A stretch of 23,780 nt of DNA from a virus (Duplodnaviria; Heunggongvirae; Uroviricota; Caudoviricetes). Made by a program: the position numbers and the translations under genes. The notes below the pieces were generated by a model. The model made no database searches. It saw only the letters and a program-made list of their open reading frames with translations, and was not told the origin of the DNA. The DNA lies in IMG/VR virus record IMGVR_UViG_3300015207_000030, positions 1 through 23,780 of that record; one strand, given 5' to 3'. Shown piece after piece: positions 1 through 8,999 of this stretch; positions within the stretch are counted from its first letter, which is position 1; each line of letters starts with the position of its first letter.

Positions 1-342
1 AACGGAAGCCGCTACCATATGCTTAACCTCCACGCGACATTTACAAAGGGAACGGTCGAGTTCAGACTTTTTCAATTCGATGCGCCGAGCGACGGCAAAC
101 AAAATGGGCTACACGCGGGGCAGCTCAAGAGTTACATTCAGCTTTGTCTGGCACTGAGCGCACTTGCCAAGAACGCGAAAAGCGCCTCGCCCAAGCCCCA
201 GCAGACCGAAAACCCGAAATACGCGATGAGAACATGGCTGCTCCGCCTCGGCTTTATCGGCGACGAATTCAAGACCGCGCGTGAGACTTTCACAAAGCGG
301 CTCGACGGCAACGGTTCATTCCGAGCGCGCCGAGCGGCTTAA
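1..342 (+). CDS. Amidoligase-family protein (glutamine-synthetase-like fold), C-terminal part; gene starts upstream of the window
   Basis: Frame is open from base 1 (first listed Met at 19). The motif KGTVEFRLFQFD matches the G-T-x-E-x-R signature that lies near the C-terminal end of the catalytic domain in carboxylate-amine ligases, so the gene must start upstream. Followed by an AIG2-like gene, the neighbourhood reported for this family in Firmicutes. Motif recalled from memory. Confidence 0.5.
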   Translation, partial: NGSRYHMLNLHATFTKGTVEFRLFQFDAPSDGKQNGLHAGQLKSYIQLCLALSALAKNAKSASPKPQQTENPKYAMRTWLLRLGFIGDEFKTARETFTKRLDGNGSFRARRAA

Positions 343-419
343 CGCGGACCGCTTGCCCGCTTCGGCGGGCTTAAGGCGGTAGAGGAACGGTTGAACGTCC
401 TCGGAAAGGTGGAATTACA

Positions 420-872
420 ATGAAAAAACTGTACTTAGCTTACGGGAGCAATCTGAACACGGAGCAAATGCGCTTCCGCTGCCCGGGTGCAAAGCCCGTC
501 GGTACGGCGGTGATACGCAATTACGAGCTGCTGTTCAAGGGCTCGCGGACGGGCGCGTACCTCACGATAGAGCCGAAGCGCGGCGGCAAAGTTCCCGTTG
601 CGGTGTGGGAGGTAAGCGCCGAGAACGAACGGGCACTCGACCGTTACGAGGGCTTCCCGGCGTTCTACTACAAAAAGGATATGAACGTCAATGTCAGGCT
701 CCCTGACGGCACGGCCGAACGCCGAGCGGCTTTCGTGTACGTTATGCACGAGGAGCGTCCGCTCGGTGTGCCGACGGGAGCATACGTCGAATGCTGCCGC
801 GAGGGCTACGGGGAATTCGGCTTTGACGAACGGTTTATTGATAATGCAATCGAAAGGAGCGTGAATGTATGA
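420..872 (+). CDS. Gamma-glutamyl cyclotransferase-like protein (AIG2/GGCT family)
   Basis: 150 aa; N-terminal LYLAYGSNL motif (YGSN signature of AIG2/GGCT), later VAVWEV and LDRYEGFPAFYYKK segments typical of the fold; RBS AAAGGTGG about 7 nt upstream of ATG 420. Confidence 0.75.
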   Translation: MKKLYLAYGSNLNTEQMRFRCPGAKPVGTAVIRNYELLFKGSRTGAYLTIEPKRGGKVPVAVWEVSAENERALDRYEGFPAFYYKKDMNVNVRLPDGTAERRAAFVYVMHEERPLGVPTGAYVECCREGYGEFGFDERFIDNAIERSVNV

Positions 873-1072
873 ATAACAAGCACAGTGAGCGGCTTGGCGT
901 TGAATTCTGCCCGAAATGCGGCAAAGCGATAAGCGGCTATCCCGCAGTCTCGCGCGTCGACGGTTCGCCGATATGCTCCGACTGCGGTACCCGCGAGGCT
1001 TTGGAGAGCATTGGAGCGTGCGCCGCAGAGCAGGACAGGATCATCGAGCTGATACACAGGAATAGCCGTTGA
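869..1072 (+). CDS. Small zinc-ribbon protein (CxxC...CxxC)
   Basis: 67 aa with CPKCG and CSDCG pairs; start overlaps the stop of the GGCT-like gene (ATGA), suggesting translational coupling. Confidence 0.55.
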   Translation: MNNKHSERLGVEFCPKCGKAISGYPAVSRVDGSPICSDCGTREALESIGACAAEQDRIIELIHRNSR

Positions 1073-1080
1073 TATTCGTT

Positions 1081-1200
1081 TTGTGCAAATCCAACAATAT
1101 CACAATCCGATATTTGTGCACGTTTTTTGCGAAAAATGTAACGAATGTAACGAATGTAACGAACGAAGTGTGCTATAATTAAAATGGCAACAGAATGACC
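1081..1200. repeat. Copy A of a ~120 bp promoter-like direct repeat (copy B at 2839..2959)
   Basis: Aligns by eye with 2839..2959 at high identity. Contains TTGTGCA twice, an imperfect inverted repeat (CAACAATATC / GATATTTGTG), three perfect tandem 9-mers ATGTAACGA (1136..1162) and an extended -10 TGcTATAAT (1171..1179). Confidence 0.75.
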
Positions 1201-1224
1201 GTTCCGAACAAACGGCGGATAAAT

Positions 1225-1260
1225 AAAGCAACGGCAGCTCATTAACTGCCGTTGCTTTGT
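1225..1260 (-). terminator. Intrinsic terminator hairpin downstream of vapC; may also stop + strand transcripts from repeat A
   Basis: Perfect stem GCAACGGCAG (1228..1237) / CTGCCGTTGC (1246..1255) with 8 nt loop; A-tract on + strand upstream gives a U-tract on the minus-strand transcript; TTTGT follows on + strand. Confidence 0.6.
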
Positions 1261-1294
1261 ATATGGCACTTCCTTTTAAGAGTTCGTCGGACGT

Positions 1295-1699
1295 TCAAAG
1301 CGTTTCAAGAAAACTGCCGGGTTTGATCGCGGGGATATCGCTTTCCTCAAAATCGCGCGTGTTTTGGGTGATGATGTATTTGCACGAATTACGCTTTGCC
1401 GTGAGCATTTGAACGGAATCCTCAAAATCCCGCGCTTTAAGCCGTGCTGCTCCCAGCGTGTCTGCGGCTTTGAGATCGACAACGTCAAATATTGCCGCCA
1501 GCTTTATCACAAGATCGTCGGTTTTGTCGGGAGTAAGCTCGCGGCGGAGAATATACACGATATTCGCAATAGACAACGCGGAAACGATACCGTTTATCTG
1601 TCTTGTCTCGCACAGCTTCCATACCTCTGCGGACTGCTCAAAGCCTTGACGGCGTGAAAGCACATCTATCAGAATGTTTGTGTCAATCAAGACCTTCAT
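1295..1699 (-). CDS. vapC: PIN-domain toxin, VapC family
   Basis: 134 aa; N-terminal MKVLIDTNILID with the conserved acidic residue, plus DFEDS and IITQNTRDF segments typical of PIN nucleases; overlaps the upstream antitoxin gene by 17 nt. Confidence 0.8.
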   Translation of the reverse strand: MKVLIDTNILIDVLSRRQGFEQSAEVWKLCETRQINGIVSALSIANIVYILRRELTPDKTDDLVIKLAAIFDVVDLKAADTLGAARLKARDFEDSVQMLTAKRNSCKYIITQNTRDFEESDIPAIKPGSFLETL

Positions 1700-1916
1700 G
1701 CCGCATTACCTTCTCCTCGCGCATTTTTTTGTAATCATAATCGTTTTTTAGAACGCCCGTCAGCTCGTCGGTCAATGATGAAACGGTCTTTTCACGCGAA
1801 ATCATTCTTGCGACCTCTTCGCCGTTTTTGGTGATCCGGATTTCTTCGTTTGACTGCACCAGCTTCAGATATTTTCCGAAGTTGTTCTGCATTTCCGTTG
1901 CGGATACTGTTAACAT
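1683..1916 (-). CDS. Phd/YefM-family antitoxin
   Basis: 77 aa; N-terminal VSATEMQNNFGKYLKLV...ITKNGEEVARMIS pattern of Phd/YefM antitoxins; GGAGG RBS (complement of 1925..1930) about 8 nt upstream of the start. Confidence 0.75.
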   Translation of the reverse strand: MLTVSATEMQNNFGKYLKLVQSNEEIRITKNGEEVARMISREKTVSSLTDELTGVLKNDYDYKKMREEKVMRHEGLD

Positions 1917-1937
1917 AATAAATTCCTCCTTTGCATA

Positions 1938-1978
1938 TTAGCTAATTATATTATAGCTTATTTTAGCTAATTTGTCAA
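1938..1978 (-). promoter_or_regulatory. Consensus sigma-A-type promoter of the phd-vapC operon with two TTAGCTAA palindromic operator candidates
   Basis: On the minus strand: TTGACA (1978..1973), 17 nt spacer, TATAAT (1955..1950), both perfect consensus. The 8 bp palindrome TTAGCTAA occurs inside the spacer (1963..1970) and just downstream of the -10 (1938..1945). Confidence 0.6.
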
Positions 1979-2172
1979 GGGGAAAGTTAAGGAAAAAATA
2001 AGCTATGCCGTATAAAGCAAAGCGCACCTGCAATTTTCCGTGCTGTCCGAAAAAGGTACTGTGACGCCCCCGCGGGGGAGACTGCGGGCTCGTCGACCCC
2101 GAATTGCACGCAGTGACAGGCGAAAAAAAGGGGTCACTTTAATTGAAAAAGGTTGAAAGGAAGGTATAGGAT

Positions 2173-2823
2173 ATGCCGGGAAAAAGGAAAGCGGCGCAAA
2201 CAAATTCATTAGGTATGCAGAGCGGCAGCGGACAGGCGATTTTCTCTCTGCAAGCCGGAACGCCTATTTTTGTCAAGACTGCCGACGTGTGCTCGGCAAC
2301 GGGCAAAACCAATCAGTGGATAGGACAGCTGACTTCACAAGGGGTTATTCACAAATGCAGAACAAACCACGGTCAGCTGTACAGTCTTTTTGATATGATG
2401 CGGGCATACTGCGCATACCTTGAAGAACGCGCGAAAAAGGACGATGAGGATATCTGCCTGCTTGAGCTGCGAAAAAAACAAGCCGAAACCAAACTGAAAG
2501 AATCCAAGGCTGCTGTCGCGGAACTTGAGGCAGCCGAGTTTCAAGGAAAAATGCACCGCTCGGAGGACGTGCGCGCAATGACCGCCGATCTGTTGTATTA
2601 CGTTCGCGGTTCGCTGCTGGCGCTCGCGGGAAGATGCGCGGCAGACTGCGCCGCGTCGGCTGATCCTGCGGAGGTACAGAAGATCATAGAACGGGAGGTT
2701 TTCGCGATACTTAAAGACCTCTCCGAATACAAGTATGACAGCAAACGTTACGACGAGCTAGTCCGCGAACGCATGAAACGCAGTTCGGACACGGAGCTTT
2801 CCGATTTTGACGATGAAGATTGA
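2173..2823 (+). CDS. Terminase small subunit, lambda Nu1-like (winged HTH)
   Basis: 216 aa; N-terminal segment (VKTADVCSATGKTNQWIGQLTSQGVI...GQLYSLFDMMRAYCAYLEERAK) parallels the lambda Nu1 N-terminus as I recall it (TIQNW..QG...LYD...Y..R); coiled-coil middle, acidic C-terminus; sits upstream of the large terminase. Confidence 0.55.
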   Translation: MPGKRKAAQTNSLGMQSGSGQAIFSLQAGTPIFVKTADVCSATGKTNQWIGQLTSQGVIHKCRTNHGQLYSLFDMMRAYCAYLEERAKKDDEDICLLELRKKQAETKLKESKAAVAELEAAEFQGKMHRSEDVRAMTADLLYYVRGSLLALAGRCAADCAASADPAEVQKIIEREVFAILKDLSEYKYDSKRYDELVRERMKRSSDTELSDFDDED

Positions 2824-2838
2824 CGGATCGGTGTTGAC

Positions 2839-2959
2839 TTGTGCAAGTTGAACAATATCGCAAAACGATATTTGTGCAGCTTTTTTCAAAAAAATGTAAC
2901 GAATGTCACGAATGTAACGAATGAAGTGTGCTATAATTAAAATGGAAACAGAATGATCT
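2839..2959. repeat. Copy B of the promoter-like direct repeat
   Basis: Same architecture as copy A: TTGTGCA x2, inverted repeat, 9-mers ATGTAACGA / ATGTCACGA / ATGTAACGA (2894..2920), extended -10 TGcTATAAT (2929..2937). Confidence 0.75.
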
Positions 2960-2991
2960 TGCGGGACAGACGGTTTCTTTTAGAATATTTG

Positions 2992-3027
2992 CGGCTTGCG
3001 GTGTAATATTGCAAGCCGTTTCCTTTG
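2992..3027 (+). terminator. Hairpin plus T-tract between repeat B and the VRR-NUC gene (possible attenuator)
   Basis: Stem CGGCTTGC (2992..2999) / GCAAGCCG (3011..3018), 11 nt loop, followed by TTTCCTTTG directly before the RBS of the next gene. Confidence 0.4.
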
Positions 3028-3042
3028 TGAGGTGAAATTGAA

Positions 3043-3414
3043 GTGCAGCAAAAACAGCATATTGAAGATACCGAGCAGATACATCTTTTTGATTGGGCGG
3101 CGATGCAGTCGGGGAAATATCCCGAATTGTCGCTGCTTTTTCATATCCCGAACGGCGGCAAGCGTGACGCACGTGAGGCGGCGCGGTTCAAAAGAATGGG
3201 CGTAAAGGCGGGCGTTCCCGATCTGTTTCTGCCCGTTCCGCGCGGGAAGTTTCACGGATTGTTTGTCGAACTGAAAGCGCCGAAAGGAAAACTTTCCGAT
3301 TATCAGAAGCAGTGGCTTCAGGAGCTTGCGGCGAGCGGCTACGCGGCTTGCGTTTGTTTCGGTTTCGACGAGGCTCGGCAGGATATTATGAAGTATCTTG
3401 AGGGGAAATTCTGA
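3043..3414 (+). CDS. VRR-NUC domain nuclease (PD-(D/E)xK superfamily)
   Basis: 123 aa from a GTG start with RBS GAGGTG; motifs HIPNGG.R, GVPDL and FVELK...GKLS..Q..W match the VRR-NUC signature as I recall it. Confidence 0.75.
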   Translation: MQQKQHIEDTEQIHLFDWAAMQSGKYPELSLLFHIPNGGKRDAREAARFKRMGVKAGVPDLFLPVPRGKFHGLFVELKAPKGKLSDYQKQWLQELAASGYAACVCFGFDEARQDIMKYLEGKF

Positions 3415-3434
3415 TTTTGCAATCGATTGCAAAA
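3415..3434. promoter_or_regulatory. Perfect 20 bp palindrome TTTTGCAATCGATTGCAAAA
   Basis: Starts immediately after the VRR-NUC stop codon; perfect dyad symmetry read directly from the sequence. Confidence 0.5.
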
Positions 3435-3524
3435 ATTGCGCTGCGGAACGAACACGGAGCAGAATATGATTTTAGTTTGATAACCGCCGCGCTCTGCGGT
3501 TTTTCTTTTACGGAGGTGTAGAAC

Positions 3525-5441
3525 TTGCGAAACGAGACCAAGCGGCAGCGGGAGGCAAAGCTGAACGCGTGTATCACGAAAGTCTTGAACGCGATGAAGC
3601 CTCCCGAAATAAGAACAGTGGCGGAGTGGGCGGATAAGAACCGCCGTTTAACGTCGGAATCATCGGCGGAGGTAGGCAAATGGCGCACCTCGCGCACGCC
3701 GTATATGCTGGATATTCTGAACTCGTTCACCGACCCGAAGGTCGAGCACATTGTTGTGGTTGCCTCCTCGCAGGTCGGGAAATCCGAGGTTGAAAACAAT
3801 ATCGTCGGATACATTATAGATCAGGACCCCGGTCCGATATTATTTGTACAGCCGACGGTAGACGACGCGAAGAAATATTCCGAAATGCGTATCGCTCCGA
3901 TGATACGTGAAACAAAGTGCCTTAAGAAAAAGGTCGCGGACCCGAAAACGCGCGATGGCGCAAACACCAAGCGTCAGAAAGCGTTTCCGGGAGGAGTGCT
4001 CGTGCTAGCGGGTTCAAATGTTCCACATGATCTGTGTTCAATGCCTATTCGGTATCTGATCGGCGACGAGCGTGACCGTTGGGCAAAATCGGCGGGCTCG
4101 GAGGGCGATCCATGGGAACTGGCGGTCGCGCGTACAAGAACGTTTTACAACCGCAAGCTGATAGAGGTCTCCACGCCGACCGTTAAAGGAGCGTCCGCTA
4201 TTGCCAAGGCGTACAGTCTCGGTACTATGGAGCGTTGGAAAACACAATGTCAGCATTGCGGCGGGTATTCCGAGGTGCAGTTTGAAGATATCCGTTTTGA
4301 ATATGATTCCGTTGACAAAGATGAAGAGAAGATATTCGATATCAAGTCGATTTTCTATGTTTGTCCGATTTGCGGCGGCGTTTCTTTGGAGAACGAGGTG
4401 AAAAAACAGCCGTCGAAATGGGAGGCGGAAGTGCCCGAGGCAAAGGAACTGCATAAGACCCGTTCGTTCTGGCTGACGGCATGGGTCTCCCCGTGGGCAA
4501 CATGGGAGTCTATCATACTGCAATTCCTGCAAGCGGGTACGGATTCCGCAAAGCTGCAGGTAGTGTACAACACTCAATTCGGCAAGCTGTGGGAAAATCG
4601 CGGCGATATGGACAGCGAGGAGGATATGCTCGCGCGTCGCGAGGAATACGGTGCGGAGCTGCCGGACGGCGTTCTGGTGCTGACGTGCGGCGTTGATACA
4701 CAGGACGACCGCTTGGAATATGAGGTGGTGGGCTATGGACATTTTAAAGAAAAATGGGGCATAAAAAAGGGCGTCATTATGGGCAGACCCGATACAAACG
4801 AAGTGTGGGAGCGGCTTGATGATGTTATAGCTCACAAATACACATTTTCAAACGGGCTGTCGCTCGGCGTATCGTTGACGTTTGTCGATGAGGGCGGTCA
4901 TTTTACACAGGAGGTACGCAGGCGCTGCCGCGAGCGGCAAAGCAAAAACGTATTTGCGATCAAGGGCGCATCGGGCAGTCGGGATATTCCGTATACGTCC
5001 GTTCCGAAACGGCAGAAGATCGTAATAAACGGTCAGACCGTCGGTTCTGTATGGGTGTATGAGATCGGCGTTGACGCGGGCAAGCAAAAGATCTTTGACG
5101 ATCTGCGTGTGCAGACGCCCGGGGCGAATTACTGCCATTTCCCGCGCCGCGACGATTACGGTAAGGCGTTCTTCAAGTCGTATATGTCGGAACGCCTGAC
5201 ATATAACGAAAAACTCAAAAACCCGTGGCGTTGGGAAAAAATTCCCGGGCATGAGCGTAACGAGGCACTGGACTGCCGAAATTACGCAAACGCGGCATTT
5301 GCGGCACTCGATCCCGATCTTGACGCTGTCGAACATCGATTAAAAGCGATGTTAATCGGAACAACGGCAGGCGCGCCGAAAAAGAAATCCCCGAAAACAG
5401 CGAGAAGAAAGCCGACGGACACGGCATACAGCGATTGGTGA
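3525..5441 (+). CDS. terL: Terminase large subunit, lambda GpA family
   Basis: 638 aa; TTG start after RBS GGAGGTG; Walker A-like SSQVGKSE within a PYMLDILNS...LFVQPTVDDA...PMIRE block matching the lambda gpA N-terminal ATPase region; CQHCGG and CPICGG zinc-finger-like pairs. Confidence 0.85.
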   Translation: MRNETKRQREAKLNACITKVLNAMKPPEIRTVAEWADKNRRLTSESSAEVGKWRTSRTPYMLDILNSFTDPKVEHIVVVASSQVGKSEVENNIVGYIIDQDPGPILFVQPTVDDAKKYSEMRIAPMIRETKCLKKKVADPKTRDGANTKRQKAFPGGVLVLAGSNVPHDLCSMPIRYLIGDERDRWAKSAGSEGDPWELAVARTRTFYNRKLIEVSTPTVKGASAIAKAYSLGTMERWKTQCQHCGGYSEVQFEDIRFEYDSVDKDEEKIFDIKSIFYVCPICGGVSLENEVKKQPSKWEAEVPEAKELHKTRSFWLTAWVSPWATWESIILQFLQAGTDSAKLQVVYNTQFGKLWENRGDMDSEEDMLARREEYGAELPDGVLVLTCGVDTQDDRLEYEVVGYGHFKEKWGIKKGVIMGRPDTNEVWERLDDVIAHKYTFSNGLSLGVSLTFVDEGGHFTQEVRRRCRERQSKNVFAIKGASGSRDIPYTSVPKRQKIVINGQTVGSVWVYEIGVDAGKQKIFDDLRVQTPGANYCHFPRRDDYGKAFFKSYMSERLTYNEKLKNPWRWEKIPGHERNEALDCRNYANAAFAALDPDLDAVEHRLKAMLIGTTAGAPKKKSPKTARRKPTDTAYSDW

Positions 5442-5743: not shown

Positions 5744-6151
5744 TTAATCTTGAATGTGACATTGCTTTTTCAGACCGTCCAGAAGCACGGCTGAGAAATT
5801 CACGCCCTGTTCTTCGGCGATTGCGTTGACCCAACCGGGAATGGAGAGGGTTTTCTTTACGAAGTGCTTGTGCATTTTCTCGCGGAACGGTTTCATATAG
5901 ACTTCGATAAGCATTGGAAGCTCGTTTTTTTCAAGCTGAATATCCTTAAGCTCCGAGGGCTCAGGAATTTCCTCCTTGTCCTCCTCCATTCCGTAAAGGT
6001 GCAGCAGAAGAGCGTCTTTAGCGCTTTCGATTGCTTTTTCGGTGGTTTCCCCCGCGCTTACACAGCCGGGGAGGTCGGGGAAATATATGCCGATTGTTCC
6101 TTTATCGCCGTATTCCAACACGGCGATAAATCTGTATTTGTCGAGGTACAT
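5744..6151 (-). CDS. hicB: HicB-family antitoxin-like protein with C-terminal DNA-binding (RHH-like) tail; no HicA partner found
   Basis: 135 aa; N-terminal YRFIAVLEYGDKGTIGIYFPDLPGCVSAGETTEKAIESAKDALLLHL matches the HicB/UPF0150 signature (PDLPGC core); C-terminal KKTLSIPGWVNAIAEEQGVNFSAVLLDGLKK resembles an RHH/CopG-type segment; RBS AGGAG 6 nt upstream. Confidence 0.75.
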   Translation of the reverse strand: MYLDKYRFIAVLEYGDKGTIGIYFPDLPGCVSAGETTEKAIESAKDALLLHLYGMEEDKEEIPEPSELKDIQLEKNELPMLIEVYMKPFREKMHKHFVKKTLSIPGWVNAIAEEQGVNFSAVLLDGLKKQCHIQD

Positions 6152-7777: not shown

Positions 7778-8999
7778 ACGCGCTTGTTATGCGCTGGCAG
7801 CCGACAGCAAATCGGAAACGGCAGAGCTTACGCTTTACGGAAACGTTGTCAAAAGGCGTCCGCTCGAGATCGATTGGGATAACGACAGGATCGCCAAGTC
7901 GACGGATAATTATATCGTTGAACAGGAATTTCTCGACGATTTAAAGGCTGTCGGGAAATGCAGGAAATTGAATATCCGCGTGAACTCTCTCGGCGGCGAT
8001 GTGCATGTCGCGCTTACAATTTACAGCCGTTTGCGCGAGCTCACGGAAAACGGCACGGAGCTTACCTGTTCCGTGGACGGAGTGGCAATGTCGGCGGGTT
8101 CGATGATAATGTGCGCCGCTGATAAGGTCACGGCAAGCGAAAGCTCGCTGATAATGGTTCACCGCAGTATGACGATGCCGCCGGATTATCTTAACGCGGA
8201 CGAGCTTCGCAAAGAGGCGGAGAGAATGGACGAGTACGACAAGGCGATAGCGTCCTGTTACAAACGCAAAACGGGAAAGTCCGAGGCGGAGCTGCTCCGC
8301 ATGATGAGTAAGGAGACATATATGACGGGCGCGGAGGCAAAGGACGCGGGCTTTGTGGACGAGCTTACAAGCTCTGAAAAATTAATAGCGATCGCGGCTT
8401 GTGCGGATATGAGATCACTTATGGTGGGCGGCAGAACGTTCGATTTAATGGGCGCTCCCATGCCCTTGAATTTACCGACGGTAACACAGCCCGAGCCGCA
8501 AGGCGGCGCGGACGTTACAGATATATCACAAACTGAAGGAGGTAACGGAATTATGGCAAATAACTTTGATGAACTGCTTAAAGAGAACCCCGCTCTCGCG
8601 GCGGCTATCGAAAAGGAGTTAAAGGCAAAAGCCGAGGCGGACGTTTCGGCTAAGGCGAACGAGACGGCAGCTAAAGCGGTCGAAGCGGAGCGGAAGAGAA
8701 TAGCCGAGATCGACGAGATAGCGGCGCTGTATTCTCCCGAACTGGTGGAGGCGGCGAAGTACGGCGACAAGGCGTGTACAGCGCAGGAACTCAGCTACAG
8801 AGCGGCTGTCGAGAACGCCAAGAGGGGCAGGAAGTTCGGCGACGATCTTCTGGCTGACGCAAAGGATTCGGGAGTGGGCGGCGTTCATGCTGCCGTTCCG
8901 CCCGCCGAGGGCAATGGCGGCGAAAAGTCGGAGGACGAGCTTATGGCAGAGGCAAGAGCAGCCGTTAAGGCGGCGCTCGGAGAGGAGGTAACGGCATGA
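7761..8999 (+). CDS. Prohead protease (ClpP/S49-like) fused to or nested with a scaffold domain, lambda gpC-like
   Basis: NSLGGDV and GVAMSAGSMIM match ClpP-family serine protease motifs; C-terminal third is Ala/Glu/Lys-rich coiled coil typical of scaffolds. Start could be ATG 7743 or ATG 7761 (RBS GAGGAGG). Confidence 0.75.
   Translation: MPKTIERACYALAADSKSETAELTLYGNVVKRRPLEIDWDNDRIAKSTDNYIVEQEFLDDLKAVGKCRKLNIRVNSLGGDVHVALTIYSRLRELTENGTELTCSVDGVAMSAGSMIMCAADKVTASESSLIMVHRSMTMPPDYLNADELRKEAERMDEYDKAIASCYKRKTGKSEAELLRMMSKETYMTGAEAKDAGFVDELTSSEKLIAIAACADMRSLMVGGRTFDLMGAPMPLNLPTVTQPEPQGGADVTDISQTEGGNGIMANNFDELLKENPALAAAIEKELKAKAEADVSAKANETAAKAVEAERKRIAEIDEIAALYSPELVEAAKYGDKACTAQELSYRAAVENAKRGRKFGDDLLADAKDSGVGGVHAAVPPAEGNGGEKSEDELMAEARAAVKAALGEEVTA
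8553..8999 (+). CDS. Possible nested in-frame scaffold protein (lambda Nu3-like arrangement)
   Basis: Internal in-frame ATG at 8553 preceded by strong RBS GAAGGAGG (8535..8542); downstream sequence is the coiled-coil Ala/Glu-rich part of the protease ORF. Confidence 0.35.
   Translation: MANNFDELLKENPALAAAIEKELKAKAEADVSAKANETAAKAVEAERKRIAEIDEIAALYSPELVEAAKYGDKACTAQELSYRAAVENAKRGRKFGDDLLADAKDSGVGGVHAAVPPAEGNGGEKSEDELMAEARAAVKAALGEEVTA

Follow-up and report, generated by a model that had tools for sequence, protein, structure and literature searches.

Why would a temperate phage carry, as one compact unit, a predicted amide-forming ligase, an enzyme of the γ-glutamyl cyclotransferase family and a small four-cysteine protein? 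The question is posed by one edge of a 23,780-nt stretch of Caudoviricetes DNA (IMG/VR record IMGVR_UViG_3300015207_000030; hereafter the window), where three co-directional ORFs on the plus strand fill positions 1–1072. The first ORF (positions 1–342, frame 1) is open at its 5′ end, and we recovered the complete gene from matching contigs. Contig L005 (GCA_949060065.1) is 100% identical to window positions 1–1101, L001 is 99.35% identical to the window across 10.9 kb, and both encode the same 314-residue protein, so that the window holds codons 202–314 and the stop. The exact window cyclotransferase (GGCT) protein is present on at least 21 public contigs. We assign the host to the Oscillospiraceae because L092, a contig of an Oscillospiraceae metagenome-assembled genome, is 99.9% identical to positions 1–1101. 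The G+C content is 57.6% for the cassette, 53.1% for the window and 47.3% for the toxin–antitoxin pair that follows. The window opens within a three-gene accessory operon that stands on its own in a temperate phage of the Oscillospiraceae.

The 113 codons of the first ORF that lie in the window match Pfam Amidoligase_2 (PF12224) with 23.5 bits (E = 5.8e-5; cutoff 22), and the full protein matches it with 190.2 bits (E = 7e-56), covering model positions 2–244 of 245. By sequence, no relative was found in the PDB with either a single sequence or a profile. By AlphaFold2, the cluster representative P0001, which is 91% identical to the window protein and was modelled from an input that included 67 diverse relatives, gave a model with a pLDDT of 94.7. 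The model predicts a glutamate–cysteine ligase/glutamine synthetase fold, and its top structural matches are glutamate–cysteine ligases. Residues E19, E21, E82, H119, H121, R205, E221 and R223 do not vary among 32 close relatives, and across 67 diverse ones they are fixed or nearly so (at least 90% conservation); by analogy only, they may act as metal, ATP or substrate ligands. The last catalytic block, with R205, N210, H212, E221 and R223, falls inside the window, as does a C-terminal extension of about 60 residues comprising two helices. Fold and residues together identify the protein as a predicted ATP-dependent carboxylate–amine ligase. Its N-terminus gave a match to the anti-CRISPR AcrIF9 that is not significant (E = 0.12), and long antisense ORFs over the gene were treated as shadow ORFs.

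The second ORF (positions 420–872, plus strand) encodes 150 residues and is preceded by a good Shine–Dalgarno sequence, AAAGGTGG. The protein matches GGACT/AIG2 (PF06094; E = 1.5e-13, 51.8 bits; cutoff 22.8), AIG2_2 (PF13772; E = 5.5e-7, 30.4 bits; cutoff 27) and PHROG 2520 (E = 2.8e-50), and aligns with human GGCT (2pn7; E = 6e-6). The YGSNL motif occurs as Y8-G9-S10-N11-L12, and E77 is in register with the human catalytic residue Glu98, which is a glutamine in PDB entry 3cry. Among 194 phage homologues, conservation of both Y8–L12 and E77–G78 reaches at least 90%. We conclude that the second ORF encodes a predicted GGCT/AIG2 enzyme whose catalytic residues are intact. An amidoligase followed by an AIG2/GGCT cyclotransferase is what a sequence-only reading of this locus had named, and both assignments hold on the full-length Pfam match and fold model of the one and on the family match and catalytic motif of the other. 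The 5′ end of the gene is separated from the amidoligase by a gap containing a stem-loop with a GCCCGC-UUCG-GCGGGC core (positions 348–380, plus strand; the RNA fold of segment 336–425 has a minimum free energy of −33.2 kcal/mol, z = −2.1). The stem-loop was not listed by a terminator scan and, since it has no U tract, does not resemble an intrinsic terminator. An Rfam search of positions 1–3600 returned no significant match.

The third ORF (positions 869–1072, plus strand) encodes a 67-residue protein with four cysteines, C14, C17, C36 and C39, in a CxxC-x18-CxxC arrangement. Its ATG (869–871) overlaps the TGA of the GGCT gene (870–872) as ATGA and follows a good Shine–Dalgarno sequence, AAAGGAG; the start/stop overlap points to translational coupling of the two genes. 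Residues 4–65 match the phage family PHROG 2945 (E = 2.4e-16), which comprises 6838 or more clusters at 90% identity and matches the amidoligase family in size; the best 120 members listed are all standalone proteins of 64–90 residues. The four cysteines are invariant in two curated alignments, A1 and A5. Between and after them run the motifs CPxCG, A-x-S-R-x-D and I-C-x-D-C-G-T-R-E-A-L, followed by two helices. In close relatives, A-x-S-R-x-D and C-x-D-C-G-T-R-E-A-L-x-S-x-G are invariant or nearly so; in the wider alignment A5, only A26, R29, C36, C39 and G40 of these two motifs remain invariant.

The same sequence-only reading had called this protein a translationally coupled zinc ribbon. 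The coupling is borne out, and so is a four-cysteine zinc protein; the ribbon class is not. The Pfam zinc-ribbon matches fall below their cutoffs, the best being Zn_Ribbon_1 with 23.7 bits against 25, and the 23 ribbon families listed (Zn_Ribbon_1, Zn_ribbon_3, DZR and others) each cover one CxxC knuckle only. The AlphaFold2 model (pLDDT 85.8) has two knuckles, of which the second opens a helix, and another helix follows; it resembles a treble-clef finger trailed by two helices more than it does a classical ribbon. Two BFVD entries, phage proteins annotated as 'large polyvalent protein-associated domain', were 41–42% identical over 44–45 columns, below the significance threshold. One homologue carries an automatic JGI label of YacG; we rejected this homology, as hhalign gave 44% probability with the second Cys pair out of register against a YacG sequence, and the Pfam matches, listed to an E-value of 1, do not include YacG. 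None of the three cassette proteins matches a named NCBIfam family, and none has a match in PADLOC-DB 2.0 at E up to 0.01.

On its downstream side, the cassette is bounded by a 19-bp inverted repeat (GCAACGGCAG...CTGCCGTTGC; repeat I3, positions 1219–1264), which separates the zinc-protein gene from the PIN gene that converges on it; its arms are 89% complementary and enclose a loop of 8 nt. This repeat is probably a two-way terminator that closes the three-gene unit. Beyond it lie the convergent PIN/PhdYeFM pair, the small terminase, a VRR-NUC gene, a GpA-type large terminase and the head genes. A 135-nt element that follows the zinc protein, with a TGnTATAAT box and three GTAACGAAT repeats, resembles a promoter and recurs upstream of the VRR-NUC/terminase genes; no third copy was found upstream of the amidoligase, which is preceded by an AT-rich, promoter-like spacer. 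The cassette had been said to continue beyond the window's edge. What continues is codons 1–201 of the amidoligase; no further cassette gene lies upstream. An amidotransferase or a target peptide had been suggested as something to look for there, and we found no amidotransferase, ATP-grasp enzyme or candidate tag peptide upstream of the amidoligase. Instead the region holds, in order, a Terminase_4-like gene, two methyltransferase genes (first the ParB_N/N6_N4 type, then the C5 type) and, in divergent orientation, a 59-aa gene whose promoter matches the sigma-70 type perfectly.

To ascertain how tightly the three genes are linked, we collected 80 IMG/VR and 80 GTDB genome loci from the amidoligase and 80 further loci from the zinc protein, about 240 in total. 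The order amidoligase–GGCT–zinc protein is almost invariant among them. In the 160 amidoligase loci, GGCT is present wherever there is enough downstream DNA, about 1.0 kb past the amidoligase start, and the zinc protein is missing from only two with enough downstream DNA. Conversely, in the zinc-anchored set GGCT directly precedes the zinc gene wherever the DNA extends far enough upstream, and the amidoligase is present in 61 of the 64 loci that extend at least 1.6 kb in that direction. In one inspected exception (L201), the cassette is truncated by an insertion of foreign, low-GC DNA. The start of the zinc-protein gene overlaps the GGCT stop by 1–32 nt in about 95% of 228 pairs.

The amidoligase is the best-conserved gene of the block shared by the window phage and its relatives, with a median identity of 78–80% to the window phage, against 56–59% for GGCT, 53–55% for the zinc protein and 53–61% for the methyltransferases. 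The ligase is 73–92% identical in prophages whose hosts belong to different bacterial families and orders; the hosts include Oscillospiraceae, Lachnospiraceae, Peptostreptococcaceae, Eubacteriaceae, Erysipelotrichaceae, Christensenellaceae and Aerococcaceae. The large terminase of the window phage differs from that of most relatives, which argues that the block moves between phage lineages. A relative occurs in only 6 of 72,556 plasmid records; the gene is associated with phages and not with mobile elements at large. At 90% identity the amidoligases form more than 8000 clusters, and the cassette occurs in many members of Ca. Heliusvirales, a widespread order of human-gut phages. Prophages with the cassette reside in the cultured strains [Ruminococcus] torques ATCC 27756, Evtepia gabavorous KLE1738 and Longibaculum muris DSM 29487. 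Overall, the cassette recurs almost unchanged in thousands of phages of gut Firmicutes.

About 70% of the related loci carry two extra genes directly upstream of the amidoligase, one for a DUF4314 protein and one for a protein of about 225 residues that shares the amidoligase C-terminal tail. By profile comparison, the latter is a shortened amidoligase homologue (99.9% probability). The catalytic positions were checked: E19/E21 are replaced by T/T, H119/H121 by C/S and E221/R223 by S/P, and deletions have removed the E82 and R205 blocks. The paralogue is therefore predicted to be catalytically dead. Two-piece tblastn matches had raised the idea of a split or intron-containing amidoligase, which we discarded on finding that the second piece is the C-terminal tail of this separate paralogue. 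PHROG 2443 ('amidoligase') lumps the paralogue with the true enzyme; as it gives a full-length match to the non-catalytic protein too, we did not take it as proof of an amidoligase and relied on Pfam and fold evidence. The same lumping explains the double 'amidoligase' entries in PMC11318856. In RefSeq and several phage records, the paralogue is named 'virulence-related protein', a label that is found on some cassette genes along with 'alpha-L-fucosidase'. The window phage has neither the dead paralogue nor the DUF4314 gene and represents the minimal three-gene form of the cassette.

Other frequent small neighbours in the relatives are DUF7678, Nmad4, DUF6809 and a SLOG-family protein. One of them, Nmad4, bears together with the upstream genes on a first alternative, in which the cassette alters nucleic acid, either the DNA of the phage or a nucleotide precursor. 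Glutamate might, for instance, be attached through an amide bond to a base that carries an amino group, and the cassette would work with the adjoining methyltransferases to evade restriction. The cassette lies directly downstream of the ParB-N6/N4 and C5 methyltransferases in 54–63 loci per 80-locus set, about 15% of loci have a gene with the Nmad4 ('nucleotide modification associated') domain after the zinc protein, and the zinc finger has weak GATA-like structural matches. In other viral contigs, amidoligase domains co-occur with thymidine-hypermodification genes (PMC8989533). We nevertheless regard nucleic-acid modification as very unlikely.

More distant relatives, with amidoligases 38–46% identical, separate the components in informative ways. 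A Blautia phage has the dead paralogue, amidoligase, GGCT and DUF4314, with the zinc protein absent; a Syntrophomonadaceae phage has the amidoligase, GGCT and dead paralogue. In the Faecalibacterium phage FP_Taranis, GGCT is absent, and a clear zinc-protein homologue lies three genes on from the amidoligase, away from the terminase. A Christensenellales phage likewise has an amidoligase with GGCT absent, and elsewhere in its locus the dead paralogue adjoins a 174-aa protein with an N-terminal zinc domain. Since GGCT is missing from some of these distant loci (FP_Taranis and L258), removal of whatever the ligase attaches would not be obligatory. From these arrangements, the zinc domain tracks amidoligase-type proteins and not packaging genes. 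Because distant phages pair the domain with the amidoligase or its paralogue even where GGCT is lacking, we conclude that the zinc protein belongs to the system as a genuine third component, and that the dead paralogue belongs to a fuller version of it.

The position of the zinc gene could be read differently, with the protein standing outside the enzyme system as a small regulator of late genes that happens to close the operon. Its gene is always found immediately before the terminase region, and in the window it is followed by the 135-nt promoter-like element that is repeated before the VRR-NUC/terminase genes. Such a regulator would be hard to reconcile with an overlap with GGCT that is kept in nearly all pairs, with the company of the amidoligase away from the terminase in FP_Taranis, or with the fusion of the zinc domain to another domain beside a dead amidoligase in the Christensenellales phage. 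Nor is the protein basic: by sequence count, acidic and basic residues are about equal. We consider this explanation improbable.

The pairing of the two enzymes has precedents. The sequence-only reading described the neighbourhood as noted before and uncharacterised, in agreement with the literature: amidoligase–GGCT pairing in phages is a computational prediction repeated in PMC11945000, PMC11318856 and PMC10945688, all of which cite Iyer et al. 2009. The window cassette belongs to this known, uncharacterised kind, which is already in the literature and in PHROGs. Our literature search found no experimental study of an amidoligase–GGCT system, and the Ca. Heliusvirales paper does not discuss the pairing. 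Neither the coupled zinc protein nor the dead paralogue was found described in that search, which covered Iyer et al. 2009 through the papers that cite it.

In the LUZ24/phiEco32-type module, a GS-like amidoligase of the phage is likewise linked to an AIG2/GGCT protein, as predicted by comparative genomics only, and the module was termed a 'putative peptidoglycan modification module' (Iyer, Abhiman, Burroughs & Aravind 2009, as relayed in PMC11945000). By extension, the window cassette might attach amide-linked residues to the stem peptide, with its γ-linked D-glutamate, or to its precursors, or remodel such residues there, and thereby block superinfection or prepare the wall for lysis, as proposed for that module. 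This is the published prediction for phage amidoligase–GGCT modules (Iyer et al. 2009, via PMC11945000 and PMC11318856), and a universal wall component fits the high conservation of the ligase across host families. However, the LUZ24/phiEco32 module has an ATP-grasp ligase, a class-II amidotransferase-like hydrolase and a second ligase, which are absent within 10 kb on either side of our cassette. ATP-grasp and class-II amidotransferase-like Pfam families were not found in the genes 10 kb up- or downstream in L001, nor were these enzymes found among the conserved neighbours of the ~240 related loci. The present cassette differs further in its coupled four-Cys protein and, in most relatives, in the dead paralogue and DUF4314. 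Family searches annotate no wall-binding, secretion or membrane domain on any of the three proteins. GGCT enzymes require a free α-amino group on an L-γ-glutamyl moiety, and on general enzymology the D-isoglutamate of the stem peptide does not offer one. For these reasons, peptidoglycan seems to us an unlikely target.

A second point of comparison is Pup tagging, with the ligase PafA and the paralogous Dop. The phage cassette has no counterpart of Pup, a disordered tag with Gly-Gly-Gln/Glu at its end. The alignments show that the zinc protein does not supply such a tag with a conserved C-terminal Glu/Gln: its C-terminus is variable, with no terminal Glu, and it has no invariant Lys, so that it does not resemble a tag or an acceptor. 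Dop is a deamidase paralogue of PafA, whereas the paralogue in the phage relatives has lost its catalytic residues, and the window phage has no paralogue at all.

What, then, might the ligase join? To our knowledge, the characterised ligases among its fold matches all activate the γ-carboxylate of glutamate, which makes transfer of a γ-glutamyl group to an amine the most likely reaction. The ligase would thus link the γ-carboxyl of L-glutamate to an acceptor amine. The choice of glutamate as acyl donor is inferred by fold analogy at 10–14% sequence identity, the range in which GshA, plant GCL, GmaS, PuuA-type and YbdK (GCS2) ligases stand to the phage protein; compared with these GCL/GS-family enzymes, the phage amidoligase is much smaller (314 aa) and has its own two-helix C-terminal extension. 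Because the ligase is so similar across host families and orders, the acceptor would be expected to be a molecule common to very different Firmicutes.

The cyclotransferase would, by its family chemistry, cyclise the γ-glutamyl group to 5-oxoproline and free the amine. It has its fold family, YGSNL motif and catalytic Glu in common with human GGCT (C7orf24) and with GGACT/AIG2-like enzymes, and differs from them in being phage-encoded, at about 150 residues; its preference may be GGCT-like, for γ-glutamyl amino acids, or GGACT-like, for γ-glutamyl amines. Together, the two enzymes may install and later remove a γ-glutamyl group in a write/erase or protect/deprotect cycle. A similar logic is known from butirosin biosynthesis, in which the ATP-dependent ligase BtrJ adds a γ-glutamyl group to an amine and the GGCT-fold protein BtrG removes it as 5-oxoproline. 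BtrJ, however, is an ATP-grasp enzyme acting on a carrier-protein-bound intermediate of an antibiotic pathway, and the phage locus has no carrier or pathway genes.

If the ligase made and the cyclotransferase broke the same bond, ATP would be wasted unless the two were separated in time or by the zinc protein, a separation that we assume; this counts against the proposal. Given its linkage to the pair, we suggest that the zinc protein serves these enzymes as a third, dedicated subunit, probably one that governs specificity or timing and so prevents a futile cycle. Our tentative reading, to which we assign a probability of roughly 0.4, is that the ligase makes a γ-glutamyl amide, the cyclotransferase removes it as 5-oxoproline and the zinc protein acts as the specificity or timing subunit. 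Any particular acceptor for such γ-glutamylation is far less probable than this chemistry.

The acceptor could be a small molecule, in which case the pair would serve auxiliary metabolism: the ligase would make a γ-glutamyl dipeptide and the cyclotransferase would split it, with glutamate and ATP yielding 5-oxoproline on balance, or with γ-glutamyl/thiol pools or nitrogen flow tuned during infection. The best structural matches of the ligase being glutamate–cysteine ligases, and the nearness in sequence of GGCT to the human enzyme for γ-glutamyl amino acids, are consistent with this. Conservation across hosts would fit small universal metabolites, and an auxiliary metabolic, nitrogen-related role has been published for a different phage (PMC10945688), although that claim does not rest on enzyme assays. 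The net reaction would, however, be futile and ATP-wasting, its benefit is not evident, and a coupled zinc protein, a dead paralogue and DUF4314 are unexpected for a simple metabolic pair. Metabolism is, in our estimation, an improbable purpose for the cassette.

The reversible γ-glutamylation that we favour could alternatively act on a macromolecule. The trio, with the dead paralogue and DUF4314, would then be dedicated to reversible modification of a conserved host or phage protein or nucleic acid, and the zinc protein would do the targeting. We hold this version to be doubtful. If true, it would constitute a new phage-directed covalent modification, for takeover of the host or for counter-defence, and one that operates in the most abundant phages of gut Firmicutes. 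To the known enzyme pair, our analysis adds a parts list, in which the zinc protein is a third component, the dead paralogue belongs to the fuller version and the window phage carries the minimal form. Identification of the acceptor would give function to thousands of genes that are at present un- or loosely annotated.

Two copies of a 135-nt direct repeat, 85% identical to each other, lie at window positions 1081-1215 and 2839-2973 and bound an interval that contains a toxin-antitoxin pair. The pair, at 1295-1916 on the minus strand, comprises a 134-aa PIN-domain toxin and a 77-aa PhdYeFM antitoxin, whose genes overlap each other and are served by a promoter that matches TTGACA-17-TATAAT perfectly. 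It has a low G+C content of 47% and is inserted between the amidoligase cassette and a small terminase gene. A HicB-like antitoxin gene is found at 5744-6151, between the large terminase and portal genes and, on the minus strand, opposite in orientation to both; no HicA partner was present among the genes called next to it.

The small terminase gene, at window 2173-2823, belongs to PHROG 57 and directly precedes the VRR-NUC and GpA-type large terminase genes. A second small-terminase-like gene, of the Terminase_4/PHROG 83 type, occurs 5′ of the methyltransferases on L001 (5364-5732), the near-identical contig that extends the window upstream; a single phage carries both genes. In most relatives, the amidoligase block has the Terminase_4 gene on one side and the large terminase on the other.

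At equivalent positions in about 110 of the 160 related loci, a catalytically dead, shortened amidoligase paralogue of ~225 aa occurs together with a DUF4314 gene, as at L013:6981-7658, 5′ of the active amidoligase; both are absent from the window phage. Databases label the paralogue a "virulence-related protein" or, via PHROG 2443, an "amidoligase". In L258, a more distant Christensenellales phage locus, a dead amidoligase paralogue adjoins a minus-strand gene (7827-8351) for a 174-aa protein, in which the zinc-finger domain of the cassette is N-terminal and joined to another domain of ~100 aa. BFVD matches equal in size to this protein bear the label "large polyvalent protein-associated domain". 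A few viral contigs, with L201:988-3601 as an example, have a cassette interrupted within GGCT by DNA of low G+C content that bears large ORFs on the minus strand; GGCT and the zinc protein are retained there, and the amidoligase is missing.

A profile of the N-terminal β-α-β unit of the amidoligase (residues 3-57; L001:8985-9149, 5′ of the window) weakly matched AcrIF9, an anti-CRISPR protein of 68 aa, along almost all of the AcrIF9 sequence. At E 0.12 the match is not significant, and it may be due to chance.

Each copy of the 135-nt repeat contains three tandem GTAACGAAT units, a TGnTATAAT box immediately 3′ and then ~45 conserved bases, and is followed by a hairpin that differs between the copies (1219-1264 and about 2991-3019). 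There are two copies in all, with none 5′ of the amidoligase, and an Rfam search of window 1-3600 returned no significant match. The element has the appearance of a promoter that was duplicated and is accompanied by a leader or terminator, of the late-promoter/antitermination type or encoding a small RNA.
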